Shown piece by piece: positions 152-13,332 of a DNA stretch of 13,332 nt. Source of the stretch: an uncultured archaeon. Its GTDB lineage: Archaea; Asgardarchaeota; Hermodarchaeia; Hermodarchaeales; Hermodarchaeaceae. The stretch spans positions 1 to 13,332 of the forward strand of contig CAYFXC010000008.1 in assembly GCA_964347045.1 (NCBI GenBank), given 5' to 3'. The stretch's first letter is position 1; every line of letters starts with the position of its first letter. Both the position numbers and the translations under genes were made by a program. The notes beneath the pieces are model-generated. The model was not told the origin of the DNA, did not search any database, and saw only the letters and a list, made by a program, of their open reading frames with translations.

Positions 152-3100
152 TTAGGCCGCTGAAGTGTCAGGAGGCGGCATGGGGGCTAGTTGAATGGGT
201 TTGAATATTCCTTTCACACGCAGTTGATATATTCCCATGAGGGCTTCAAGTTTTTCGGTTTTTGCCGCTGCGAGATAGGTGCTTAGGATTTGACCAAGGA
301 AGATGTATTCTCTGTCAATGGTTAATTCCTTTGCAAGAGTGTAGATGTCGGATTCTAGTGAAGAGAGTTGAGCGCCCCGTGGTCGACGTTTGGTAACACT
401 ATGTGGATGGCGCAGTGAGATTAAGAAGACTTCTTCGACAAGGTCTGATGCGCTGTTGAATTGGTCTACACGACCTTCCCAGTGCTCAAAGTCACCCTTG
501 TATCGCGTCTCAAATACATCTGTGAAAGTTTCGAGTCGGTTTCGTAACTGCTCACTTGGTGTTCCACTCAGAACCAAGGCAACACGGACAAACCGACCAT
601 CGTTGATGAGAATTCGGAAGCCTTCATATTGGAGTTCGCGAAGAGTCCGAGCCTCTTCAGAGTCATCAGCGAGACCGGGACTATCTCCTAGATCGTGACC
701 AAAAGTTGATATCGCTTGGAGGAAGCCAGCTACAAGAGTTGCATCTTGACTTTCTTCCGCGAACGGATCAAAAACACAAATGCCACTTTCTTTATGAAGC
801 ACAAGTAGCCGATTGAGATTTGCTACATCACTAAAGGTGTCAGCAATTGCCTGATATTTTGCGAGTTTCTGAAGACGTTTGGGTAGAAGAACGTATCGGC
901 GATATGTCATGAAACCACCGAGAGGAACGAAAATGATAATTACAACTAGCAATGCAATTAGAGGAAGTTGACTCATGAATACAGTGTTAAATGATATTGC
1001 ACTGATACGCAGAATATCTCCATTATGTTCGAGGGGAGCATTGGAGAGACCAGCATAGTTCTCGGCGGCATCAATTGATACATAAAAGGAATATTGTCCT
1101 TCTTCATTGAGATTACTTTCAAGATGAATCCATCCGTTGACAACATAACTTTCAATTTGGATTGACCCACCACCTTGAACTGTAATGGTTAAAGTAACCT
1201 TGGTACCATCTGGAAGTAAAGCACCACTAGGTTGTTTTAGAAAAGATTGTTGACTTCCTATCAGGTGTGCGGAAGATGAACTAGTTTCAACGAGATAGAA
1301 TTGAATGTCCAAAGACCATGGAGTATTTAGATTTGGTGCAATCGGGTTGAATTCAGGGAGTACATTGTACTCGATGGTCTGTTTAGGAGCTATGGTAAGG
1401 GAGATTGTCGTTGCAGAATCAACAAAATCATTAGCCTCTGCGTATATGGTAACATTGTATGTTCCAGGAGAAAGCCCCTCTGTGCTGAAGTTTGCAATCT
1501 CATAGAGCCCAAGACCTGGTGTTGCTAACGTGAGCGTGGTATTCTCTCCACCATTGACACCTGCTTCAAGGACACCATGGCTTAAGTCTTCACCGTTGAG
1601 TGCATCGCGGAGTACAACCCGAAGAATAATTGGATGATCACTAGTCGGGTATTGCCAATCTTCATAGAGTATAATGTTTTGAAACTCTGTAGGAACATCA
1701 ATTCTTGTTGGACGAGGCTGCGGTCGCACATTGACTGGTTTTGACCAATTGGCTTCATACCCAAATTTTACTGCATAAATCAAAATGAAAGCGGTATCTC
1801 CTTCGTGAAAGGCAATACCACCGATGGGATTTGTGTCAATGGTGATGTTATAAAATCCGATTTTTGTTGAATCAGTAAGTGACCAATCAACCCAGTCAAG
1901 GCGTTTAAACACGCCTAACGTACCATGAACAATATAGGGCACCAATGTGGCGTCCTTGATAGGAATACCGCCATCATCGGTGTACAGGATTGTGAATTGT
2001 AATGAGGAGTCGTTAATGTATGGTTGCGGAGAAGTAAACCAGTAGCTGGACACATTATCTAGACCTGAGAGAGGTTGATCTTCCCAGAAGAAGAGAATGT
2101 GGGTTTCTCTTGTTTTTATTTCAAAGCTTTTGGTTACATTTTGTTCTTGGTTATAGGGTGACGAAAAATACATGGTGATGTTATGGAGAACCCCAACAGA
2201 GGCGTTATGCGTATGGATAAACGCGGTGTAGAATCCTGGTGATCCATATGACGCCCAATTTACCCATTGATAATCGACGACCGTATCTCCAGGACCTAAT
2301 CCCCATTCGAGACCACTTGTTTCGTTTATGATTGTAACAACTGCATCAGGGATAAATATCCCCCATTCATTATAGTACAAGACTTCAATGATGACATCAT
2401 CACCGCGAATGACAGGTTCGTCTTCTTGTGGAAATTCATAGGAGACCCAATAATTAGTTTTGACATAGACTTCAAGGGTTTCAAGGGTTAGACCAGCTTC
2501 AGTACCGTTGAACCATATTATTTGGAGATTGTGAAGCCCCCCGACGGTGGCCGTGGTCCAGATTGACCAGTTGAGTTCAACGATTCCCCCGGGTGGCATT
2601 GCAAGCGGATTGAGATGATAATGAACTATGTAATTTTCCGGATCGTAGACAAGCAGGTAACCGAATCCGCTGGTTGCATTTTCGCCCATCCCATCTTGAA
2701 CGTACCCATTTGCATAAATTGTTTCTGTACTGTTTGCCATCGTTATGGGTTGTCCTGTTTCATTTAGAATTTCTGAGTTCACTAAATAATCGGGAGAACG
2801 GCAAAGGATTGTCCATTGTCCGCTGACCGCATTTTCAATGACAAGCCACCATCCCGTGGTGGGGGAATACCGATAGAAATAATCCATATGAAAAGAGCCA
2901 TCCACAATAACTTGGAAGACATTCCAGTCGGACTCGATTGAGACAGATATCCGTTGGTCTATAGCAGAGGCAGGAAAATCAGCATAAAAACTTACATTCC
3001 AATCCACCCAGTTATGCAGAGCATGCACAGTGAACTGTGAATCGACAATGAGTGTCTCGTAGAACCATCCGATCCAGGTAACATCGTATGTTAATCCGGA

Positions 3101-4234
3101 CCATACATATTCGACGTCAAAGTAGCGATTCGCTTTCGTCATGTTGATAGCCGGTGAATGCCATCCGCCATCCCAAATACCAGTACCTGGATTTGGAAAG
3201 AGATTCATAACGGGAGTTCCATTTACGGTCATTCCGATCTCACTCGGGTAGAAGAACCGAGTAAACACAACTATAAGGAAGAAATCAAGGGAAGGCCCTG
3301 AAAGGAAATTCAAAGAGGGCCAAGGATAAGATTGCCATGCATCACCTTCGTCCTCTCCATCTCCATCAGGTGGAAAACCGACATCTTCCATTAATGCCCA
3401 AGCCGCTGCAGCGCCTGGCATCATGGTCAGTGCAAAATAGAATGTATTCGCATAGGTCATTTGACTATCTAATAGGATTGGTACGGTGGGCAGTCCAATC
3501 CACTGTTCGGTAGAGGAGGGCATATCAGGTACAAATTCTTGCATCCAAGGTCCAAGGGGCCGAGCTAAATCGGGCATTGTACCTAGACCTGAGATTACAC
3601 TTGGAGCAGCAGCATAAACTGTATAGTTAAACCAGCCTCCCGTTCTAGGATTATTTGGTGAATACAAATAGATCGCAAATTCTGTGAGTTCAACAGGTAA
3701 ATGACCAGTGGCATTGAACGCCATAAAAACAACTTCGCCAGGCCATGTTTTTTCATCCATCGGCCAGTAATACCTCCAACCCGTCGAGGGATCATGATCT
3801 TCAACCATGATGAAGTCTTTATTGTCGTTGATGTTGCCGATTCGAGAAAAGAAACTAACATCATGATACATCATCCCTTTATCAATGGTCACCTGATAAT
3901 CAGATCCATTATCTTCCCCCGTAAAGGAATTAGAAATGTTCCATGTTAGTTGGGTCATCCGTGGTGATCCCATTCCAGTTTGAGATAATGGCATTACCGG
4001 GTTCACGGGTTCAGGTTCGGGTATACTAGAATCACTTGGGGAAGTATAGGATTGAGTATTTTGCAGGGTTTCTTGTTCAATATCAGGAATGGCAATATCA
4101 TGAGAAGGAATACTTCTTTCCTCATTTTGCACAATGTCGGGTTGTAAATTGGGTCCATTTACGGGAAAATACGGAATAAGCGGGAAAAGTATCATGCCTA
4201 ACATTAACAATGAAAAAAATTGTATTCTCCTCAT
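152..4234 (-). CDS. Large single-pass membrane glycoprotein: signal peptide, beta-rich (probably Ig-like) ectodomain, TM helix, cytoplasmic longin/roadblock-like domain and possible C-terminal winged helix
   Basis: Long open ORF (1363 aa from GTG 4243; ATG 4234 is preferred because AGGTG lies 6 nt upstream). N-terminus MRRIQFFSLLMLGMILFPLIP is a signal peptide. TM segment LPLIALLVVIIIFVPLGGFMTY is followed by basic RRYVLLPKR. The tail has LLVLHKESGICVF...DATLVAGFLQAISTFG...LRELQYEGFRILINDG, a pattern typical of Asgard longin-like domains. Confidence 0.85.
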   Translation of the reverse strand: MRRIQFFSLLMLGMILFPLIPYFPVNGPNLQPDIVQNEERSIPSHDIAIPDIEQETLQNTQSYTSPSDSSIPEPEPVNPVMPLSQTGMGSPRMTQLTWNISNSFTGEDNGSDYQVTIDKGMMYHDVSFFSRIGNINDNKDFIMVEDHDPSTGWRYYWPMDEKTWPGEVVFMAFNATGHLPVELTEFAIYLYSPNNPRTGGWFNYTVYAAAPSVISGLGTMPDLARPLGPWMQEFVPDMPSSTEQWIGLPTVPILLDSQMTYANTFYFALTMMPGAAAAWALMEDVGFPPDGDGEDEGDAWQSYPWPSLNFLSGPSLDFFLIVVFTRFFYPSEIGMTVNGTPVMNLFPNPGTGIWDGGWHSPAINMTKANRYFDVEYVWSGLTYDVTWIGWFYETLIVDSQFTVHALHNWVDWNVSFYADFPASAIDQRISVSIESDWNVFQVIVDGSFHMDYFYRYSPTTGWWLVIENAVSGQWTILCRSPDYLVNSEILNETGQPITMANSTETIYANGYVQDGMGENATSGFGYLLVYDPENYIVHYHLNPLAMPPGGIVELNWSIWTTATVGGLHNLQIIWFNGTEAGLTLETLEVYVKTNYWVSYEFPQEDEPVIRGDDVIIEVLYYNEWGIFIPDAVVTIINETSGLEWGLGPGDTVVDYQWVNWASYGSPGFYTAFIHTHNASVGVLHNITMYFSSPYNQEQNVTKSFEIKTRETHILFFWEDQPLSGLDNVSSYWFTSPQPYINDSSLQFTILYTDDGGIPIKDATLVPYIVHGTLGVFKRLDWVDWSLTDSTKIGFYNITIDTNPIGGIAFHEGDTAFILIYAVKFGYEANWSKPVNVRPQPRPTRIDVPTEFQNIILYEDWQYPTSDHPIILRVVLRDALNGEDLSHGVLEAGVNGGENTTLTLATPGLGLYEIANFSTEGLSPGTYNVTIYAEANDFVDSATTISLTIAPKQTIEYNVLPEFNPIAPNLNTPWSLDIQFYLVETSSSSAHLIGSQQSFLKQPSGALLPDGTKVTLTITVQGGGSIQIESYVVNGWIHLESNLNEEGQYSFYVSIDAAENYAGLSNAPLEHNGDILRISAISFNTVFMSQLPLIALLVVIIIFVPLGGFMTYRRYVLLPKRLQKLAKYQAIADTFSDVANLNRLLVLHKESGICVFDPFAEESQDATLVAGFLQAISTFGHDLGDSPGLADDSEEARTLRELQYEGFRILINDGRFVRVALVLSGTPSEQLRNRLETFTDVFETRYKGDFEHWEGRVDQFNSASDLVEEVFLISLRHPHSVTKRRPRGAQLSSLESDIYTLAKELTIDREYIFLGQILSTYLAAAKTEKLEALMGIYQLRVKGIFKPIQLAPMPPPDTSAA

Positions 4235-4243
4235 ATTAACCAC

Positions 4244-4470
4244 CTATAGTTGATGAGGTTTCTATTGCAGCCGCAAGGGTGCATTGTACAGAAATTGAAG
4301 AGTGCTGGATTCTCCTCAATGTCTACCTAAAGCCCGTGAAATACGCGTTCTTAAGTATTTGTCTAGATGGTGAGTGGATAAAAATTGATTGAGGGATAAA
4401 CAAAGCTGCGGAGCGTAGCCTATAAGAGATTAAGAAGGTTAGAGTACTTATTCGGAAGTTGATGGAGTGG
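4244..4470. promoter_or_regulatory. Divergent promoter region between the membrane protein gene and the nitroreductase operon
   Basis: Non-coding gap of about 230 bp between head-to-head genes, with AT-rich TATA-like words (TTCTTAAGTATTT, CTATAAG). Exact promoters could not be resolved. Confidence 0.4.
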
Positions 4471-4473
4471 ATG

Positions 4474-5094
4474 ATGATGCCTGCCTTCTTTGAATTCATT
4501 GTCAACAGAAGAAGTATCCGGAAATATAAGAAGAAATCAATACCTCAAAGTCAGATCACTCGTATTGTCGAGATGGGAAAATGGGCACCTTCTGCGCATA
4601 ACGCTCAACCCTGGCGATTCTTTATCTTACAAACATCTGAAGAAAAAGAAAAACTAGCAAGAGCAATGGGTAACATGTTTCGACTGGATCTAGAAAGGGA
4701 TAAGGAGAACCCGAAAATAATTGATAAGTTGGTTCAAGCATCCATTGAACGGTTTTCTTCGGCGCCGGTGCTTATTCTAGCTTGTCTGACGATGCAGCCA
4801 ATGGATTCGTATCCAGATGAAAAACGTCAACAAGCGGAATTTGTTATGGCGATTCAGAGCGTAGCCGCAGCGCTTCAGACGATTCTTCTGGCTGCCCATG
4901 CAGAGGGAGTGGCGACTTGTTGGTTTTGTGCACCATTATTTTGTCCCGATGTTGTACAACGAACGCTAGGATTATCAGAGGAGTTTCTACCACAAGCACT
5001 GGTTACAATGGGAATTGCGGATGAAACTCCTGAGCCACCAATTCGCCATCCATTTGAAGAGTTTGCTACTTTTGTTGACAAAAAGGAGAGATGA
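4474..5094 (+). CDS. FMN-dependent nitroreductase-family protein, FbiB C-terminal-domain/FbiE-like (putative dehydro-F420-0 reductase)
   Basis: Nitroreductase motifs RRSIRKY and APSAHNAQPWRF. The segment QSVAAALQTILLAAHAEGVATCWFCAPLFCPDVVQRTLGL resembles the FbiB C-terminal subfamily. It sits directly upstream of cofD. The start is probably ATG 4474 or 4477, after GGAG at 4464-4467. Confidence 0.85.
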   Translation: MMPAFFEFIVNRRSIRKYKKKSIPQSQITRIVEMGKWAPSAHNAQPWRFFILQTSEEKEKLARAMGNMFRLDLERDKENPKIIDKLVQASIERFSSAPVLILACLTMQPMDSYPDEKRQQAEFVMAIQSVAAALQTILLAAHAEGVATCWFCAPLFCPDVVQRTLGLSEEFLPQALVTMGIADETPEPPIRHPFEEFATFVDKKER

Positions 5095-5098
5095 GACA

Positions 5099-6046
5099 GT
5101 GTTGGTGGTTGCGCTAGCAGGTGGGGTGGGTGCCGCGCGGTTCTTAGAAGGTCTCGTTCAAGAGATGCCTCCTGAAAAGCTCACAATAATCGGGAATACA
5201 GGTGACGACATGGCAAATTTCATGGGATTATACATCTCGCCGGATTTGGATATAGTGACTTACACGCTGGCAGGAGTCGTGGACCCAGTGAAAGGCTGGG
5301 GAATAAAAGGCGATACGTTCCACGCCTTAGAGGTTCTTCAAAACTTGGGATTTGATACTTGGTTTGCACTAGGAGATCAGGATTTGGGTACCCACTTTGC
5401 ACGAACGGCTATGTTACAGCAGGGATGGTCTCTATCTAAAGCGACACAGGTAATCAGTCAATCCATGGGTGTTCGGTGTCGAATTATTCCAATGACAGAG
5501 AAATGGGTGCCTACACGCATTGTAACTGATGTTGGGTTAGTGCATTTTGAAGAATATCTTGTAAAACGTGGCGCGAAGGATACTGTTGAGGATGTGATTT
5601 TTGATGGCATCGACGGCGCCTCACCAAGCCCGGGTGTGCTTGAAGCAATTGAACAAGCGGAACTCATCATTATCTGTCCCAGTAACCCCATCGTAAGTAT
5701 TGGACCAATCCTCGCAGTTCCCGGTATTAAACAAGGAATTATGAAAGCTAATGCTCTCTGTGTAGCGGTCTCGCCGATTATCAGTGGTAAACCAGTAAAA
5801 GGACCTGCGGATAAGCTCATGGAAGGAAAAGGCATTGAAGTCTCACCCGTGGGAGTAGCAGAAATCTATCAAGAGTTCCTCGACGTTTTGATAATTGATA
5901 AGAAAGATCACAAACTAGTCCCACGCATCGAGGAGTTAGGTATGACTGTTGTTGTTGAACAAACGCTCATGACATCTCTAGCACGAAAAAAGAGGTTAGC
6001 TAAAACAGTTCTAAAAGTGGCTAAGGACCAGAAACGCAAATCATAG
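5099..6046 (+). CDS. cofD: 2-phospho-L-lactate (or PEP) transferase CofD/FbiA, coenzyme F420 biosynthesis
   Basis: Family motifs LAGGVGAARF, IGNTGDD..GLYISPDLD, WFALGDQD, HFEEY, ICPSNPIVSIGPIL and VSPII..PVKGPA. Likely start is GTG 5099 (AGGAG at 5084-5088), just after the nitroreductase stop; the ORF-track start at 5015 overlaps the upstream gene. Confidence 0.95.
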   Translation: MLVVALAGGVGAARFLEGLVQEMPPEKLTIIGNTGDDMANFMGLYISPDLDIVTYTLAGVVDPVKGWGIKGDTFHALEVLQNLGFDTWFALGDQDLGTHFARTAMLQQGWSLSKATQVISQSMGVRCRIIPMTEKWVPTRIVTDVGLVHFEEYLVKRGAKDTVEDVIFDGIDGASPSPGVLEAIEQAELIIICPSNPIVSIGPILAVPGIKQGIMKANALCVAVSPIISGKPVKGPADKLMEGKGIEVSPVGVAEIYQEFLDVLIIDKKDHKLVPRIEELGMTVVVEQTLMTSLARKKRLAKTVLKVAKDQKRKS

Positions 6047-6094: not shown

Positions 6095-7546
6095 ATGATA
6101 AAAATTTACAATACCCTCTCACGGAAGAAAGAGCCCTTCACCCCATTGCACGCGGGCGAGGTACGCATGTATGTCTGCGGACCCACCGTGTATGATTCAA
6201 GTCATTTAGGTCATGCCCGTTCAATTGTCGCTTTTGACGTGATTCGACGCTATTTAGAGTATAAAGGCTATGATATGCGTTTCATCCAGAACTTCACTGA
6301 TATAGATGATAAAATGATTCAACGCGCTCAATCCCAAAAAACTACCACTGACAAGTTAGCCACCAAGTACATTCAGGAGTATTTTGAAGATTTTGATAGG
6401 CTCAGCGTGAAACGAGCCACAGCTTATCCGAAAGCCACAGAACACATCCAAGAGATGATTGAATATATTCAGAAATTAGTCAAGAAAGGATTTGCATACG
6501 AAGCTAATGGTAGTGTATATTTCAGGGTGACCAAAATCAAGAATTATGGGAAACTTTCGCGCCAAGAAAGGAGTGAAAAGGTGGTTGAGGATCAAGATGC
6601 TGGCGTTGCAGAGGATAAGGAACACCCGAAGGATTTTGCTTTATGGAAGAAAATGAAGCCGGGGGAACCGAGTTGGGATTCCCCTTGGGGGAAAGGTCGA
6701 CCAGGATGGCATATTGAATGCTCTGTCATGTCAACCAAATATCTTGGTGACCCAATTGATATACACGGTGGTGGGCTAGACCTTGTTTTTCCCCATCACG
6801 AAAATGAAATTGCACAATCAGAGGCCTTGAGTGGACAACCGTTTGTGCGTTATTGGATGCATAATGGATTCCTTACCGTAAATAAAGAGAAGATGTCCAA
6901 ATCTTTGGGGAACTTTTTCACAATCCAAGAAATTACTAAAAAATATAATCCAGAAGTTATTCGATTTTTTCTTATTTCATCTCAGTACCGGAGCCCCATT
7001 GATTTCAGCGACGCACAGCTTGAAGAAGCAAAATCCCGACTATCCCGCATTCACAATTCCATTGATATCCTTCAACGTCGCCTTCGTGAAGCCCGAATTG
7101 CTGAAGTAAAAAATACGGTAAAACCCTCTTCCGCAGATGTAGAGTTATGGGAGGCGTTATCAACGTTAGAGAAGGAATTTGAGCAGGCTATGGATGATGA
7201 TTTCAATACACCCATAGCCTTAGCAAATTTGAATAAGTTTCTGACCAAGATGAACTCCGTGCTCTCTGGTGGTAACTCTGTTACTGTAGGAACCCTACAA
7301 AAAGTCTTTGAGACGCTTGATGCGATTGGTGAAGTCTTTGGCCTATACCGTGAGCGAATGAAACTGGAAGCAATGGACCAAGGAACAATTAATGGTTTAG
7401 TGGAAATTCTAATTCAGCTTAGGAATGAAGCACGGAAACTAAAAGATTTCAAAACAGCAGATCGGATCAGGGATCAGCTGAAAGAGCTCGGAATCCTTCT
7501 TGAGGATGAAAAATCGGGAACTGTGTGGAAGTTAGAAGGAAAATGA
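6095..7546 (+). CDS. cysS: Cysteine--tRNA ligase (class I CysRS)
   Basis: Motifs MYVCGPTVYD..HLGHAR (HIGH), NFTDIDDK, DFALWK, SPWGKGRPGWHIECS, DIHGGGLDLVFPHHENE and KMSKSLGN, plus the C-terminal DFKTADRIRDQL anticodon-binding region. Confidence 0.98.
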   Translation: MIKIYNTLSRKKEPFTPLHAGEVRMYVCGPTVYDSSHLGHARSIVAFDVIRRYLEYKGYDMRFIQNFTDIDDKMIQRAQSQKTTTDKLATKYIQEYFEDFDRLSVKRATAYPKATEHIQEMIEYIQKLVKKGFAYEANGSVYFRVTKIKNYGKLSRQERSEKVVEDQDAGVAEDKEHPKDFALWKKMKPGEPSWDSPWGKGRPGWHIECSVMSTKYLGDPIDIHGGGLDLVFPHHENEIAQSEALSGQPFVRYWMHNGFLTVNKEKMSKSLGNFFTIQEITKKYNPEVIRFFLISSQYRSPIDFSDAQLEEAKSRLSRIHNSIDILQRRLREARIAEVKNTVKPSSADVELWEALSTLEKEFEQAMDDDFNTPIALANLNKFLTKMNSVLSGGNSVTVGTLQKVFETLDAIGEVFGLYRERMKLEAMDQGTINGLVEILIQLRNEARKLKDFKTADRIRDQLKELGILLEDEKSGTVWKLEGK

Positions 7547-8820
7547 AAGCATTAATTCTTGCCGCTGGCTACGGCACACGATTACATCCTTTAACCCAAT
7601 ATCGACCAAAGGCAATGCTCCCGCTCCTTGGTAAGCCAATGCTTCATCATGTAATTGATTCCGTGCATGATGCGGGAATGAAAGAAATTGTGTTAGTGGT
7701 TGGTCATTATCGAGAACAGATTGAAGGTTATTTTGGTGATGGTGAACACCTAGGAGTCAATATTAGCTATGCTGAGCAAACAGAGCCGAAAGGTGAATAT
7801 GACGCTGTTCTAGCAGCGGAACAGAATCTTTCCACTGAAGATCGGTTTCTGATGACTGATTGCGACATCATTACAACAACAAGTCGCTTCAAAGATACAC
7901 TGAAAGCAGCAAAAACTGGAGACATGGCCTTATCACTTTTTGAAGTGCCAAATCCTTGGCAATTCGGAGTAGTAGAATTAGATGGAACCAAAATTACAAC
8001 TATTGTCGAGAAACCAAAGAAGGGCACTGAACCGAGTAATCTTGCGGTTGCAGGCGTCTATGTATTTTCAAAGACAATTTTTAATGCAATCCGTAAAACC
8101 CAAGATCTAGAGGTGGGAATCCAAGAGCTGATCAATGAAGGACATACCGTATATGGGAGCCATTCAAAGGATCCCTGGGTTGATGTTGGTCGCACCTGGA
8201 ATATACTTGAGGCATCCCCTGTGCTCTTTGACCGATTACGGAAACAAAAAGGAGAACCTATTGATTCATCCGCAACTGTGAGCGATGCTGCGCATATCAG
8301 CGGAGATGTATGGATTGGACCCAGAGCCAGGATATTTCCAGGAGCGTCTCTTGTTGGACCAGTTTTTGTTGGACCAGATGCTATTATTGGCAATAATTGT
8401 CTTCTCCGTGATCAGGTAGTGATGGAGCAAGGGGCAAGAACTGGTTTTTCCTGTGAACTTCGAAACACGGTGATGATGCCCCAAGGCCGTATTGGTCATC
8501 TCGCCTTTGTTGGAGACAGTATCCTCGGGTTTGATGTAGAAATTGGAGCTAGTGTCGTTTTGTCGAATTACCGATTTGATGGAGCAGAAGTGCACGTTAT
8601 GCTCCAAAATCAGTTGGTCTCTACTCACACTGATAAATTTGGGGCAGTTGTTGGTGATACATCAAAAATTGGATGTGGGGTTGTTGTACTACCAGGTCGA
8701 ACCATTGGATATAATTCGTGGATTGACCCCTTGATTGTCGTACAAAGAGATGTTGCGGATAATACGCACCTGAAGTTGAAACAGACTCTCATTGAAAAAC
8801 AACGACGCCCTTCTACTTAG
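7543..8820 (+). CDS. glmU: Archaeal GlmU-type bifunctional sugar-1-phosphate nucleotidylyltransferase/acetyltransferase
   Basis: N-terminal MKALILAAGYGTRLHPLT..RPKAMLP, EKP and WVDVG motifs. C-terminal hexapeptide beta-helix with HLAFVGDSILG, SNYRFD and KFGAVVGD. ATG 7543 overlaps the cysS stop (ATGA). Substrate specificity is uncertain. Confidence 0.85.
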   Translation: MKALILAAGYGTRLHPLTQYRPKAMLPLLGKPMLHHVIDSVHDAGMKEIVLVVGHYREQIEGYFGDGEHLGVNISYAEQTEPKGEYDAVLAAEQNLSTEDRFLMTDCDIITTTSRFKDTLKAAKTGDMALSLFEVPNPWQFGVVELDGTKITTIVEKPKKGTEPSNLAVAGVYVFSKTIFNAIRKTQDLEVGIQELINEGHTVYGSHSKDPWVDVGRTWNILEASPVLFDRLRKQKGEPIDSSATVSDAAHISGDVWIGPRARIFPGASLVGPVFVGPDAIIGNNCLLRDQVVMEQGARTGFSCELRNTVMMPQGRIGHLAFVGDSILGFDVEIGASVVLSNYRFDGAEVHVMLQNQLVSTHTDKFGAVVGDTSKIGCGVVVLPGRTIGYNSWIDPLIVVQRDVADNTHLKLKQTLIEKQRRPST

Positions 8821-10216
8821 TAAGTCGAGTTAACGCCGTTTTTGCATCCTTTAGGAGCATCTTGGCACGCTGAGCTGAAAATGCTTCAACGGTTAAACGA
8901 ATTACTGGCTCGGTTCCAGAGGGGCGAACAAGTATCCAACTAGAATCAGAAAAACTGACCCGCACACCATCCATTTTATTCACATCTTGTACGTCTTTCC
9001 ACTTTTCGAGTGAGGAACTAATTTGGGTCATTACTTTAGCTTTTTGCGCATTTGAATAGGATACAGAAGCCCGAAGCAAAAATGTGGAGGGTAAATCATC
9101 TACAAGCTGACTTAGGGGACGATTAGCCCAGTCTAAAAGTTCAAGTATCTTGCAGGCCGCAAGAGGCCCATCCGGGCATAGATGGACTTCAGGGAAAATA
9201 AAAGGTCCAGAGGGTTCAGCACCGATAATTGCATTATGATCCTTAACCAGGTTAGATACAAAGACATCTCCAACACGGCTTCGTTCGACTCTTGCTCCAT
9301 GTTGCTTTGCCACATGATCAACTACACTCGAACTGGATACAGTTGTAGCGATGACTTTTCCTCCGCGCGTCGCAAGATAATAATCAGCTACAAGAGCTAG
9401 GAGAGTGTCACCTGCAAGAATGCGTCCTTTGTCATCAACGGCAAGGACGCGGTCTGCATCACCATCATGGGCAATTCCCACATCTGTATTCGTTGATGTA
9501 ACTATCTCGCTCAAATCATCTAAGCAAACAAAGTGTTGCCATTCTGCCGCCGCCGCACTTTGAGTTTTTGAGGGCCCACAATGTTGAGCATATTCTTTTC
9601 CATTAGGAGGAGCATTGAGGAGTTTGACATGAGCATTAAGCTGACGTAATGCAATGGGCGTGACAAGGCTACCAACGCCAAGAGCAGCATCTAAAACAAC
9701 ATTATATGTTTTCGTTACTTGAGTTGCATCATGAATAGCATTGATATGAGGGGGAAGGGCTTCGAAGGAATGAAAATCTGCAAAATCTTCCCAACCAACT
9801 GCAACCGCATCTTTGAGAAAGGTTTCAATTTCCTCTTGTTGAGATATTGAAAATCCTGCTCCATCAGGATTATGAAATTTAAATCCATTATATTCAGGGG
9901 GATTGTGACTAGCTGTCACTATCAGCGATGCATTCAATCCAATCTTTCCTGCAGCATAAGCGATTGACGGGGTAGGAGCCATTTCTGTTTTAGTAACAGG
10001 GACTCCACCTTGAAGGAGTCCAGCCGTCAATCCTGAGGTCAGCATGGGACCAGTGATCCGATGATCATGCCCCACCATTATTTGTGGAGTCTGGTAATGA
10101 GTTCGGAGAAATTGAGCCGTTGCTAGACCGAGTTTTATCGCAAATGGACCAGTGATAACTTCGTTGACTTTACCTCTGATGCCAGAGCTACCAAACAGTG
10201 ACTGCGTGAATGGCAT
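8813..10216 (-). CDS. glmM: Alpha-D-phosphohexomutase, most likely phosphoglucosamine mutase
   Basis: Motifs LFGSSGIRG, TASHNP (phosphoserine), HDGDADR (metal), AEPSG (sugar loop) and RPSGTEP. Adjacent to the GlmU-type gene, with a GGTG ribosome-binding site upstream. The family is secure; the specific glmM call is inferred. Confidence 0.8.
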   Translation of the reverse strand: MPFTQSLFGSSGIRGKVNEVITGPFAIKLGLATAQFLRTHYQTPQIMVGHDHRITGPMLTSGLTAGLLQGGVPVTKTEMAPTPSIAYAAGKIGLNASLIVTASHNPPEYNGFKFHNPDGAGFSISQQEEIETFLKDAVAVGWEDFADFHSFEALPPHINAIHDATQVTKTYNVVLDAALGVGSLVTPIALRQLNAHVKLLNAPPNGKEYAQHCGPSKTQSAAAAEWQHFVCLDDLSEIVTSTNTDVGIAHDGDADRVLAVDDKGRILAGDTLLALVADYYLATRGGKVIATTVSSSSVVDHVAKQHGARVERSRVGDVFVSNLVKDHNAIIGAEPSGPFIFPEVHLCPDGPLAACKILELLDWANRPLSQLVDDLPSTFLLRASVSYSNAQKAKVMTQISSSLEKWKDVQDVNKMDGVRVSFSDSSWILVRPSGTEPVIRLTVEAFSAQRAKMLLKDAKTALTRLTK

Positions 10217-10244
10217 TATAACTTACACCACTGATATTAGCATT

Positions 10245-11624
10245 CTATGTGGAGGCATTTCTAAGAACATGATTAATCCATTCTAGGCCGAGGTTCAGAA
10301 GTTCCTGGGCACGTTTCTTCTTTCTTGATTCGGCGAAACAGCGAAAGACCGGTTCAGTTCCGGAAGGGCGGAGAAGCAGCCATCCATCAGCGAATACTGC
10401 TTTGACTCCATCTATGGTTATGATTCGCGCTTTAGGAAATTGTTCTTTGATCATGTCTAAAGCATGGAGTGTAACAGCTTCTTTGAGTTCGTTCGGGCAT
10501 TCGATTGCTCTTTTCAATTGGATGTATTGGGGAAATTCATCGATGATGTTGCTCAGCGATCTTGTGTGTTGGGCGAGATATTCGAGGAGATGGGCGATAC
10601 CAAGACCGCTATCAGAGAGATAGTTGAGCCGGGGATAGATAACTTTACCAGATTCTTCAAAGGCAAAGAGGGCATTATGTTTCTTTGCCGCAGCAACTAT
10701 TGCGGGTGGACCTACGCGACTATAAACAACGCGAGCTTTGAATTGTCCAACTATGTCTTCGACAAGATTGCTTGAATTAATGGGAGTGATAATTGTCCCT
10801 CCACCTTCCCGTGAAAGTTCAATGTAAGCCAAGAGCGTGCCCGACACATCACCCATCAATGCACGCCCTTTATCATCAATGAAGAAAACGCGGTCAGCAT
10901 CACCATCTGTAGCTACTCCCAAATCCGCCTTCTGCTCCTTAACAAGTTGCACTGCTTGATCTAATAGTTTGACTCGTAAATTAGGTGACCGCCCAGGAAA
11001 TTTGGGATCACGCTCCGTATTCAGACCAATTATGGTACAGCCCAACTGGTCGATAACGTCAAGCAACCAGGGTATAGCTGTTCCATTGGCAGCATCGACA
11101 ACAATGCGAAATTGCCGTTTGCGAATTAAGTCCACATCCACTTGTTCTAAAACCTTAGTGACCCAAAAGGCACCTACATCAGTTATTCGGCGTAGTTGCC
11201 CATGGATTAGCCAATCAATGGGTTTAGCTCTAGCCATATTTAGCTGTTCGATTTGATTCTCAATATCATGAAAAACCGGAGCACCATCAGCACCAAGCAC
11301 TTCAATTCCAGACATATGAGCAGGAATATGACTTCCCGTAATAAGAACCGCCCCTCCCACCTCACAATGACGAGTATAAAGACTTACGGCGGGAGTAATG
11401 ACTTCGCCACCATAATGAGCATCTGAACCCCCTGCCATTAATCCACTAGCGACTGCATTGGTAAGAAGTGGACTGCTGGTTCGGTTATCATGGCAGACTA
11501 GAATGGGTTTCTGATTAAACACCGTGGCAATACTATAACCAATTTGCCAAGCGATTTCAGAATTTAATTCATCAGGAACACTTCCACGAATACCACTTGT
11601 ACCAAAGGACGGAGTCCATGCCAT
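10245..11624 (-). CDS. Alpha-D-phosphohexomutase superfamily protein (PMM/PGM-like), variant catalytic loop
   Basis: Motifs FGTSGIRG, TGSHIP, TDGDADR, FEESG and RPSGTEP. Likely start is ATG 11624 (MAWTPSFG) with GAGG upstream; the ORF track starts at 11660. Confidence 0.92.
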   Translation of the reverse strand: MAWTPSFGTSGIRGSVPDELNSEIAWQIGYSIATVFNQKPILVCHDNRTSSPLLTNAVASGLMAGGSDAHYGGEVITPAVSLYTRHCEVGGAVLITGSHIPAHMSGIEVLGADGAPVFHDIENQIEQLNMARAKPIDWLIHGQLRRITDVGAFWVTKVLEQVDVDLIRKRQFRIVVDAANGTAIPWLLDVIDQLGCTIIGLNTERDPKFPGRSPNLRVKLLDQAVQLVKEQKADLGVATDGDADRVFFIDDKGRALMGDVSGTLLAYIELSREGGGTIITPINSSNLVEDIVGQFKARVVYSRVGPPAIVAAAKKHNALFAFEESGKVIYPRLNYLSDSGLGIAHLLEYLAQHTRSLSNIIDEFPQYIQLKRAIECPNELKEAVTLHALDMIKEQFPKARIITIDGVKAVFADGWLLLRPSGTEPVFRCFAESRKKKRAQELLNLGLEWINHVLRNAST

Positions 11625-11660
11625 GATGAAGCCTCTTTCAACAACTTTCCAATAAACCAT

Positions 11661-11756
11661 AGGGGCACGCTTTTATACCCCTTTTTATAGGCTGGTTTTT
11701 TCTACAATGCATAAAGCAAAGAAGTTAAATCTGCTGACTACTTTAAGGAGATTAGG
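11661..11756. promoter_or_regulatory. Divergent archaeal BRE/TATA promoters
   Basis: Minus strand reads AAAAAGGGG-TATAAAAG (about 11670-11686) upstream of the mutase. Plus strand reads AAAGAAG-TTAAAT (about 11718-11730), about 27 bp before ATG 11757, with AGGAG at 11746-11750. Confidence 0.5.
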
Positions 11757-12467
11757 ATGAGAGTCGTTAAAACTACGGATTCCCTTGGGAATTCAACACA
11801 AATGGATGAAGACCATCTTGCTGCAGTCATACGTGAGTTTGGGCGATCTATGCGTGAAGTTACTGGTGGCTTAGATGATGCAATGAATCGTTGGGAATCA
11901 GCGCATCGTAGTTCACTTCGACCCATCCGAGTTATTCTGGGCGCGTTATCAAAAATTAATTACTTCCGTAATATCGAAGATCTTGGAAAACTCAATTCCT
12001 TCGATGGTATTGTTGATCGTGCTATTACTAAAAACATGGGTCTTCTTGACAAGGTGCTTCCCAAAGTATTAGCCCTTGCATCTGATTTTGAAAGTTCAAT
12101 CCGTAAAATGAGACTCATGGAAAAACGGGTTTTCGAATTACAACGTCGCGGAGCTAGTTTATTAGGCGGAGAAGGCAACGATGAACCACGGGTTCGACAG
12201 CTAGTTGACAACGTCGATGCACTGAGTTGTAAACTCCGACAAATTGTGTGCATGTACGAGGATGAATATCTCTTCCGCAAGAAGACCATCCGAAACATTG
12301 AGGAACTAATAGACCCGAAGGAACTCTATACAAGCCTTCTATTATGGACTATGGAGCCATATCTGGAATCGGATCGGATCGAAGCCATTCGCAGAGAAAT
12401 TGGCACCCACATTGAGGAGACGCGATCCTTGGTTTCACGGCAAAACGTCCCCGCGAATATGTTCTAA
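11757..12467 (+). CDS. All-helical protein resembling eukaryotic CINP / C1orf109 (AIRIM) AAA+ adaptor family
   Basis: 236-aa ORF filling the gap between two mutases, with its own RBS and TATA-like element. Amphipathic helical pattern throughout. The C-terminal MYEDEYLFRKK...DP......LLLWTMEPYLESD resembles the CINP C-terminus as recalled from memory. The CDS is well supported; the homology needs a search. Confidence 0.7.
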   Translation: MRVVKTTDSLGNSTQMDEDHLAAVIREFGRSMREVTGGLDDAMNRWESAHRSSLRPIRVILGALSKINYFRNIEDLGKLNSFDGIVDRAITKNMGLLDKVLPKVLALASDFESSIRKMRLMEKRVFELQRRGASLLGGEGNDEPRVRQLVDNVDALSCKLRQIVCMYEDEYLFRKKTIRNIEELIDPKELYTSLLLWTMEPYLESDRIEAIRREIGTHIEETRSLVSRQNVPANMF

Positions 12468-12545
12468 GCAGGCTAGCTTGAATTGAAGTACCCCACACAT
12501 TAATTAGTTAACACGTAGGTTTGAGAAGTACGAGAGGAGTCTCTT

Positions 12546-13332
12546 TTGACCCGACTATTTGGTACCCAAGGATTTCGAGGAATTGTCAATGAAGAACTCA
12601 CATCAATGGTAGCACACGATATTGGTTTGGCAATGGCGGAATTTATGGGTATTCAGAAAACCATTGGATTAGGATGGGACACACGTAAAACCAGCGAAAT
12701 GATAGGATTTGCCTTTAGTGCAGGCCTTATGACTGGGGGGTGCGATGTTCATCTTTTCGGTCTCATTCCGACACCCCTATTGTCATATGCCATCCCACAC
12801 CTTAATCTGGATGGCGGTGCAATGATAACAGCCAGCCACAATCCTCCAGAATTTAATGGCATCAAATTATGGGGAAAGGATGGCGCGTCTTTCACCCCAG
12901 AAATGGAACGTGGAGTTGAAAGCCATTATTTTACCAAAGAAAAGGTTCAGAAAAATTGGCAAACTTGTGGACGCCTAATTCCTGCAGAGGATTTTAGACT
13001 TCAATATATTGAAGGATTATTAGATCAGGTTGATTCACAACGAATAATAAAACAACAGTTTCGTGTAGCAGCGGATTGTGGTGGAGGCGCTGCCACAATG
13101 GTAGCTCCAGTACTTTTGAATGCCGTTGATGCTCAAACGGAATTGTTGTTTTGTGAGCCAGATGGACTCTTTGCCAATCGATTACCTGAACCGAAGGAAA
13201 ACAACTTGACGCAATTAATTGAATGCGTTAAAGAGAACAATCTGGATCTTGGAATGGCATGGGATGGCGACGCAGATCGTGTTGTTTTTATTACAAACAA
13301 AGGTCGATATTTAATGGGCGACCGCATCTTTG
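12546..13332 (+). CDS. Third alpha-D-phosphohexomutase (PMM/PGM/GlmM family), truncated by the window edge
   Basis: Manually translated from TTG 12546 (GAGGAG at 12534-12539): MTRLFGTQGFRGIVNEELT...GWDTRKTS...IPTP...MITASHNPPEFNGIK...EPDGLFANRLPEP...AWDGDADRV...LMGDRIF. The frame is open to the end of the window, which is why it is missing from the ORF track. Confidence 0.95.
   Translation, partial: MTRLFGTQGFRGIVNEELTSMVAHDIGLAMAEFMGIQKTIGLGWDTRKTSEMIGFAFSAGLMTGGCDVHLFGLIPTPLLSYAIPHLNLDGGAMITASHNPPEFNGIKLWGKDGASFTPEMERGVESHYFTKEKVQKNWQTCGRLIPAEDFRLQYIEGLLDQVDSQRIIKQQFRVAADCGGGAATMVAPVLLNAVDAQTELLFCEPDGLFANRLPEPKENNLTQLIECVKENNLDLGMAWDGDADRVVFITNKGRYLMGDRIF

Follow-up and report, generated by a model that had tools for sequence, protein, structure and literature searches.

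The window analysed here is a 13,332-nucleotide stretch of DNA (positions 1 to 13,332 of contig CAYFXC010000008.1) from the genome of an uncultured Hermodarchaeaceae archaeon. Close to one end it carries, on the minus strand, a gene for a 1363-aa membrane protein. An initial annotation of region 152-975 had described a transmembrane (TM) helix, a basic helical linker, a longin/roadblock-like domain and a winged-helix-like tail, and had read these as parts of a surface receptor or adhesin coupled to small GTPases. On the minus strand this region encodes residues ~1090-1363 of an uninterrupted 1363-codon frame, in which the ATG at codon 4 is likely the true start. The gene and its parts are as follows.

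152-4243, minus strand: the whole gene, a single open reading frame (ORF) for a 1363-aa type I membrane protein; stop codon at 152-154
4163-4243, minus strand: N-terminal signal peptide-like segment, residues ~1-27, two Arg followed by a hydrophobic stretch (KD19 hydropathy)
977-4162, minus strand: ectodomain, residues ~28-1089, ~1060 aa (composition and sequons)
908-976, minus strand: single TM helix, residues 1090-1112 (KD19 hydropathy)
818-907, minus strand: basic juxtamembrane helix, residues 1113-1142, tail residues 1-30 (AlphaFold2 model and alignment)
410-817, minus strand: longin domain, residues 1143-1278, tail residues 31-166 (model, structural matches and hhalign)
188-409, minus strand: winged-helix domain, residues 1279-1352, tail residues 167-240, starting at a nearly invariant P168-H169
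155-187, minus strand: short proline-rich C-terminal end, modelled with low confidence and not conserved in the family

We refer to the last 251 aa (residues 1113-1363) as the tail and use tail numbering for conserved positions. A hydropathy scan of the protein reveals two hydrophobic segments only, at residues ~6-30 (KD19 values of 1.6-1.95) and 1082-1116, the second of which contains the TM helix with values up to 2.8. Six Arg/Lys residues fall within the 16 residues directly after this helix. The 23 N-X-S/T sequons are confined to residues 102-930; the tail has none, although an equal density would place about 5 there. The ectodomain is rich in T, G, S, N, Y and W, with Lys and Arg together making up 3.3%, whereas the composition of the tail is that of an ordinary cytoplasmic protein. 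The protein thus displays the marks of a type I single-pass protein, namely a signal sequence, one TM helix, a positive-inside flank and sequons on the N-terminal side only. The TM helix, its basic flank, the sequon distribution and the contrast in composition indicate an N-out, C-in orientation with a cytoplasmic tail, and on these sequence features the assignment as a type I surface glycoprotein with its tail inside the cell is secure. The TM helix is therefore where the initial annotation had placed it, and the domain behind it is predicted to lie inside rather than outside the cell. The ectodomain itself matches no Pfam family; a feature-based search of the atlas returned sub-threshold leads only, to lectin-like and Ig-like archaeal surface proteins (score 0.83), a weak lead to relatives of these kinds.

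We modelled the tail with AlphaFold2 from an alignment of 69 tails, obtaining a predicted local distance difference test score (pLDDT) of 91.4 and a predicted template modelling score (pTM) of 0.84. The modelled chain leaves the membrane as a 30-residue helix, continues into a longin fold and ends in a short strand, three helices and a wing. The juxtamembrane helix (tail residues 2-30) carries a net charge of +4, close to the family mean of +4.1, in agreement with the proposed basic helical linker, and its conserved residues are P9, K10, F25, D27 and N30. A weak PilO match on this helix (E 0.02) was dismissed as a coiled or helical artefact. Residues 31-166 of the model follow the longin order beta-beta-alpha-beta-beta-beta-alpha-alpha (DSSP: E31-38, E44-46, H56-74, E89-94, E97-103, E107-113, H119-135 with 137-141, and H148-161). 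Foldseek matches of the model were all longin or roadblock structures, including AP2 sigma, Sec22b, Fuzzy, LAMTOR and zeta-COP. The best VIA-align match was the longin domain of a Lokiarchaeota Roadblock-Longin protein (8yqg; Z 12.0 over 130 aa at 2.9 Å), and high scores were likewise obtained with Sec22b (Z 11.9), Fuzzy (Z 11.2, with an identity of 15-16% that is the highest among the structural matches), VAMP7 (Z 10.6), Mon1/Ccz1 (Z 10.4) and Ykt6 (Z 10.2).

Longin structures superpose on 120-130 residues of the model (~25-165) with Z 10-12. Roadblock structures reach Z 9-10 but stop near model residue 138, covering the common core only. Since the longin matches reach ~165 and the roadblock matches end near 138, we assign the domain to the longin type and not to the roadblock type. 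Of the longin/roadblock alternative left open by the initial annotation, the longin half therefore stands, its strand order coinciding with the segments quoted there, and the roadblock half falls; the topology of the model is the predicted one. A Roadblock/LC7 identity (PF03259, MglB-like) was rejected on two further grounds, as Pfam gives no match and two C-terminal helices are present as in longin domains. Likewise, the architecture of tri-longin Rab guanine nucleotide exchange factors (GEFs), with three longin domains per subunit, does not apply to a tail with one longin domain followed by a winged helix. The residues conserved in the longin domain are the hairpin H38-K39-x-x-G42; L58, G61, F62, A65 and F69 of helix alpha1; D103-G104; R108; and E133. 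G42 (96%) precedes strand 2 and is followed by a variable residue rather than Pro (the motif is S-G, not G-P), while R108 (88%) starts strand 5. Neither Pfam nor NCBIfam holds a family for the whole protein or for the tail, and PDB sequence and profile searches with the tail yielded nothing meaningful.

The last ~85 residues were also folded separately. This segment reached a pLDDT of 92.6 on its own, with elements H21-33, H42-52, H57-69 and E73-75, and its structural matches were winged helices without exception (VIA, Z 6-8.2), upholding the winged-helix-like tail of the initial annotation. The top matches were the TbtB RRE (Z 8.2) and MecI (Z 7.5; 61 aa, 2.4 Å); the winged helices of ORC/Cdc6/MCM scored Z 6.3-6.9 and those of RPA32 and cullin Z ~6-7. 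With three helices and then a hairpin or wing, superposable on solved structures, the fold class of the model is clear, but at these modest Z values the matches do not single out a family. Apart from a single DsrD match, none of the tails in the family alignment matches a DNA-binding helix-turn-helix (HTH) family at E<=0.1. Across the family the third (recognition) helix has a mean charge of -0.1 and a conserved acidic residue at its start, and the mean charge of the whole domain is +1. We therefore rejected identity with DNA-binding winged-HTH factors (TrmB, MarR, PadR, BlaI/MecI), for which there is no profile match and whose basic recognition helix is lacking here.

A phmmer search of a library of 1.84 billion cluster-representative proteins shows that the tail belongs to a large family, with 991 representatives at E<=1e-3 and 535 at E<=1e-10, numbers well beyond chance. 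Orthologues from metagenome-assembled genomes (MAGs) of Hermodarchaeota/Promethearchaeota have tails 78-90% identical in proteins of 1285-1389 aa; full-length orthologues occur in at least 7 other assemblies of these groups and in several independent sources. A single-protein locus scan retrieved only such close orthologues, which marks the window organism as an Asgard archaeon. Among the sequencing runs listed, no RNA run contains the sequence, and the only run that does is probably the source metagenome. In the window genome (2.58 Mb, 89% complete) five genes encode the whole TM and tail module, which answers how many paralogous tails it carries. Identity between the tail of the window protein and those of the other four is only 30-42%, and we thus regard the paralogues as old. 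About 12 soluble proteins of the same genome share the longin part, several of them continuing into the winged helix. Of 141 relatives whose longin domain is preceded by at least 110 residues, 140 have a TM-like segment in the 100 aa before it. The variable, adhesin-like ectodomains range from ~70 to 2400 residues and have no domain in common, so that only the tail aligns across members; parts recognised by Pfam include FG-GAP, bacterial Ig-like, beta-propeller, SpaA and MG4. Despite this variety A65, F69 and E133 are invariant, and D27, G42, L58, G61, F62, Y94, G104, R108 and P168 are kept at 88-99%.

A profile search found matches in 290 of the 301 genomes of the phylum, a figure that overstates the receptor form, as many matches cover only the longin part and lie in soluble proteins. 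This emerged from a check of five genomes that are closed or nearly so. The family of the window organism and no fewer than six further families of the phylum clearly have the complete membrane-anchored module, at 1-5 copies per genome checked. In structure- and feature-based atlas searches, archaeal (Asgard) clusters alone contained the full module, and no bacterial row had a TM-score above 0.50. All named members are labelled "hypothetical protein" except one short JGI record with the automatic label "predicted DNA-binding protein".

Some members carry more on the inside. Of 52 members that extend more than 100 aa past the winged helix, 46 share one homologous cytoplasmic domain of ~195 aa (relatives P0032-P0144, e.g. 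P0040:1274-1468). This domain is present in about a third of the members examined (46/156), and it is absent from the window protein. Its TPR-like repeats match consensus-TPR proteins in the PDB (E 7e-8). MIT is matched weakly by 9 of 40 copies, with a best E of 4e-4 that does not reach the cut-off. In eukaryotes, ESCRT-III is bound by MIT domains, and the TPR/MIT-like domain may point to partners of the ESCRT-III type, with hints of other protein partners. Two of the receptor loci in the window genome, on contigs C24 (G000:C24:1-3726) and C30 (G000:C30:1-3311), resemble a segmental duplication or strain variants. Their flanking 221-aa gene (PadR-like winged HTH with a D-V-T-G-G motif) is 90% identical between the two, and the receptor tails only 64%; the C30 paralogue appears split into two overlapping frames at the contig start, possibly by a frameshift. 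Another Asgard genome (G030:C13:44681-48424) has two tail-bearing ORFs of 914 and 922 aa on the same strand ~3 kb apart; copies arranged in tandem like these could pair as heterodimers.

Dimers of longin and roadblock domains serve as conserved platforms for GTPases (Tran et al. 2024, PMC10933270), and the expansion of these proteins in Asgard archaea is well documented (PMC10933270; Liu et al., bioRxiv 10.1101/2020.10.19.343400; PMC12290439). Among the Asgard longins catalogued are NPRL2-like proteins that continue into a small C-terminal domain, and others that are fused to GTPases or to two-component domains (bioRxiv 10.1101/2020.10.19.343400). Known Asgard longin/roadblock proteins are soluble or are fused to GTPase, roadblock or two-component domains, whereas the window protein has its longin domain behind a TM helix and an extracellular part of ~1060 aa, and a winged helix after it. 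The closest structure, 8yqg, has the same fold order and comes from the same phylum, and the solved domain is dimeric; its sequence is only 8% identical to the tail. The first longin domain of Fuzzy/Mon1/Ccz1/HPS1 superposes at Z 10.4-11.2 with 15-16% identity, but tri-longin Rab GEFs have three longins and the Fuz_longin_1 profile, and the tail has one longin without a profile match. NPRL2/NPRL3 of GATOR1 and the Asgard "NPRL2-like longin" share with the tail a longin followed by a small C-terminal domain of winged-helix type, a conserved Gly before strand 2 and a conserved Arg (R108 in the tail) starting strand 5. Longins that act as GTPase-activating proteins (FLCN, NPRL2, SMCR8) have a G-P motif before strand 2 and an adjacent catalytic arginine finger (PMC12290439). 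The tail differs from NPRL2 in its S-G motif. A search of the genome with Pfam NPR2 gave nothing relevant and did not match the window gene, and NPRL2 is absent from the top 50 structural matches of the tail model.

Membrane platforms of this fold are also known from the Ragulator (LAMTOR1-5), which serves the Rag GTPases, and from the SRX domain of SR-alpha with SR-beta; LAMTOR2/3, SRX and MglB match the tail model at Z 9-10. There the anchor is a separate lipidated or TM subunit without an ectodomain, whereas the window protein unites anchor, ectodomain and platform in one polypeptide. The longin SNAREs (Sec22b, VAMP7, Ykt6) are likewise membrane proteins with a cytosolic longin domain, but as tail-anchored proteins they carry the longin at the N-terminus, have a SNARE motif and lack an ectodomain, and the window protein runs ectodomain-TM-longin with no SNARE motif. 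Integrins and cadherins offer a functional analogy only. They combine varied adhesive ectodomains (FG-GAP propellers included, as in some members of the tail family) with one TM helix and a conserved tail; their tails are not homologous to the one described here, and those of integrins are short peptides rather than folded domains. Our literature search, which was not exhaustive and so is no proof of novelty, found no description of a TM-anchored Asgard longin receptor with a large ectodomain. Because the longin and winged-helix folds are both present and the curated longin profiles and the three-longin layout are not, the protein represents a new architecture of a known kind. It is an unannotated receptor-type architecture within the known Asgard longin superfamily.

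What the tail does must be judged from its conservation and its relatives. We propose that the ectodomain would be one of many interchangeable binding modules on a glycosylated single-pass protein, and that the 250-aa tail of basic helix, longin and winged helix would be the conserved docking module of a large Asgard family. Paralogues that diverged long ago have retained identical tail residues, and the whole family therefore probably docks a single shared partner on the cytoplasmic side of the membrane. In eukaryotes the longin fold serves as a docking site for small GTPases. By analogy with all well-studied longin/roadblock platforms, and by homology to a GTPase-coupled family of soluble longins, a Rab/Arf-like small GTPase is the most plausible candidate. 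The tail, probably dimeric, would bind this GTPase, and ectodomain binding outside the cell would thereby be coupled to GTPase-controlled machinery inside. Taken as a whole, a longin and winged-helix docking module behind a TM helix and ectodomain, with a GTPase as partner, is our best explanation, and we hold it tentatively. In a more specific form, contact by the ectodomain would pair the tails, and the resulting longin dimer, like Mon1-Ccz1 or Fuzzy, would recruit or activate a Rab/Arf-like GTPase at the contact site, making the proteins receptor-type GTPase regulators; this form we consider unlikely.

Indirect support for a GTPase partner comes from a soluble family of ~273 aa. The longin domain of the tail aligns with this Fuz_longin_1-type family over its whole length (hhalign probability 84.7%, E 6.7e-6), and the motif D-x-x-L-(I/L)-S-G-F-L-x-A in helix alpha1 is common to both. 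The soluble family reaches the cut-off of Pfam Fuz_longin_1 (PF19036). In the window genome its gene abuts one for a small GTPase of Arf/Ras/Roc type (G000:C7:76888-78260, locus L020; homologous loci L023, L024 and L025). In homologues 40-52% identical the longin and GTPase genes overlap by 4 bases within three differing neighbourhoods, and the two form a conserved gene pair. The window genome has at least 30 genes for Ras-superfamily GTPases and 13 roadblock genes. Asgard archaea as a group have dozens of small GTPases and longin/roadblock proteins, and their genes are rarely in operons (PMC10933270). The nearest soluble relative of the tail is another protein, of 220 aa, with a longin domain and part of the winged helix (G000:C2:129628-130293, minus strand; L006:1252-1914; loci L027-L030). 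Around its gene, down to 56% identity, the order is a Macro domain gene, a ~850-aa AAA (MoxR/Mg-chelatase-like)+VWA gene, the longin gene, an IFT52-GIFT/DUF4350 gene on the other strand and CDC48.

Several results speak against a GTPase partner or a longin identity of the tail. The window gene does not adjoin a gene for a GTPase, a roadblock protein or any other signalling protein. GTPase and roadblock genes adjoin none of the five tail genes of the genome, the nearest GTPase gene being 6-7 kb off for the four paralogues, so that the coupling to small GTPases put forward in the initial annotation gains nothing from gene order, even as its receptor- or adhesin-like topology with an internal tail holds. 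A phyletic test was also negative, as 4-15 Ras-like GTPases are encoded even in those Asgard genomes in which the tail profile finds no match. The conserved neighbourhood of the 220-aa relative contains AAA+VWA, GIFT-domain and CDC48 genes and no GTPase. Finally, no Pfam longin model (Longin, Sybindin, Clat_adaptor_s, Fuz_longin_1) matches the tail of the window protein, and a genome-wide search with Fuz_longin_1 did not pick up the window gene; one of the 69 aligned tails does match Sybindin (E 0.0013). At the sequence level the kinship with longins thus emerges from profile-profile comparison alone, against the Asgard longin family aligned by hhalign.

These results also bear on the main rival, in which the tail is a GTPase-independent anchor or organiser of the surface coat. 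It would fix, cluster or sort surface glycoproteins, either through pairing of longin domains beneath the membrane or through contacts with cytoskeleton, ESCRT or AAA machinery, standing in for a missing S-layer lattice. Asgard cells indeed lack an S-layer and bear a lawn of numerous complex surface proteins (PMC9834061), and the absence of GTPase genes from the gene neighbourhood is as this reading predicts. The AAA+VWA and CDC48 genes beside the nearest soluble relative, the TPR/MIT-like domain with its weak MIT matches, and the protein- or peptide-binding nature of the top VIA matches of the winged helix, such as the TbtB RRE, point the same way. However, the TPR and MIT matches are below Pfam cut-offs and that domain is absent from the window protein, and a simple anchor would not need a two-domain module of 250 aa with polar residues invariant across the phylum (E133, R108, D27, the H38-K39 hairpin). 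We regard an anchor without a GTPase as possible but rather doubtful.

More improbable still is a membrane-tethered transcription regulator, whose winged helix would bind DNA at the membrane, as in ToxR and CadC, or after proteolytic release, with the longin domain as regulatory or ligand-binding part. MecI/BlaI, Fur-family, SarX and LexA repressors do occur among the structural matches of the winged helix, soluble longin and winged-helix paralogues of the window genome weakly match TrmB, MarR_2, HTH_24 and HTH_47, and the one JGI label names a DNA-binding protein. Yet structural matches at Z 6-8 are generic, and conservation of the recognition helix across paralogues with unrelated ectodomains would give them all the same DNA target. 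Because the winged helix is near-neutral, has an acidic residue where its recognition helix starts and, DsrD apart, matches no DNA-binding HTH family, a tethered transcription factor is the weaker reading. Nor do we give credence to an artefact, in which a chimeric or mis-assembled ORF or a pseudogene would join a tail and an ectodomain that are not one protein. The gene does lie at the end of a MAG contig (the window is C8:1-13332), and the C30 paralogue appears split, but the 1363-codon frame is unbroken, full-length orthologues recur in independent assemblies, and the same architecture is found in 140 of 141 relatives, which together make an artefact scarcely credible. The docking module with a small GTPase as its tentative partner thus stays our preferred explanation.

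Upstream of the receptor gene are a nitroreductase-family gene, CofD, CysRS and sugar-nucleotide genes; downstream, in orthologous loci, are phosphoglycerate mutase, a phosphorylase, a transporter and PhoU, a setting of housekeeping metabolism. At 4459-6046 on the plus strand the nitroreductase-family ORF (4459-5094) overlaps, as listed, the CofD ORF (5015-6046) by 80 bases, and the start of CofD (2-phospho-L-lactate transferase) is probably further downstream. This pair suggests an F420-related function. A sugar-activation cluster occupies 7525-13331, with an NTP-transferase carrying hexapeptide repeats and three phosphoglucomutase/phosphomannomutase paralogues, located at:

8813-10216: first paralogue
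10245-11660: second paralogue
12546-13331: third paralogue

The cluster lies ~3 kb from the gene for the sequon-rich surface protein and may supply its glycan precursors. At 11757-12467 on the plus strand an ORF of 236 aa weakly matches the C1orf109-like ribosome-biogenesis family (PF15011, E 1e-4, below the cut-off), making a further eukaryote-like protein possible.

The tail family merits a Pfam or NCBIfam model of its own, as its named members are nearly all labelled "hypothetical protein". In linking a longin platform directly with a binding domain outside the cell, it offers a concrete entry point to the cytoplasmic partner of an invariant tail. Even with a partner other than a GTPase, the family probably accounts for some of the uncharacterised "complex surface proteins" that cryo-tomography has revealed. 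With a GTPase as partner, outside-in signalling to switches of the trafficking type would be older than eukaryotes, and the family could explain how a protein-studded surface free of an S-layer talks to the cytoskeleton and the membrane-remodelling machinery. Should the proteins prove to be contact-driven GTPase regulators, they would represent an archaeal forerunner of eukaryotic signalling from surface receptors to small GTPases, one that could guide the growth of protrusions, the formation of vesicles or the engulfment of partners in the lineage from which eukaryotes arose.

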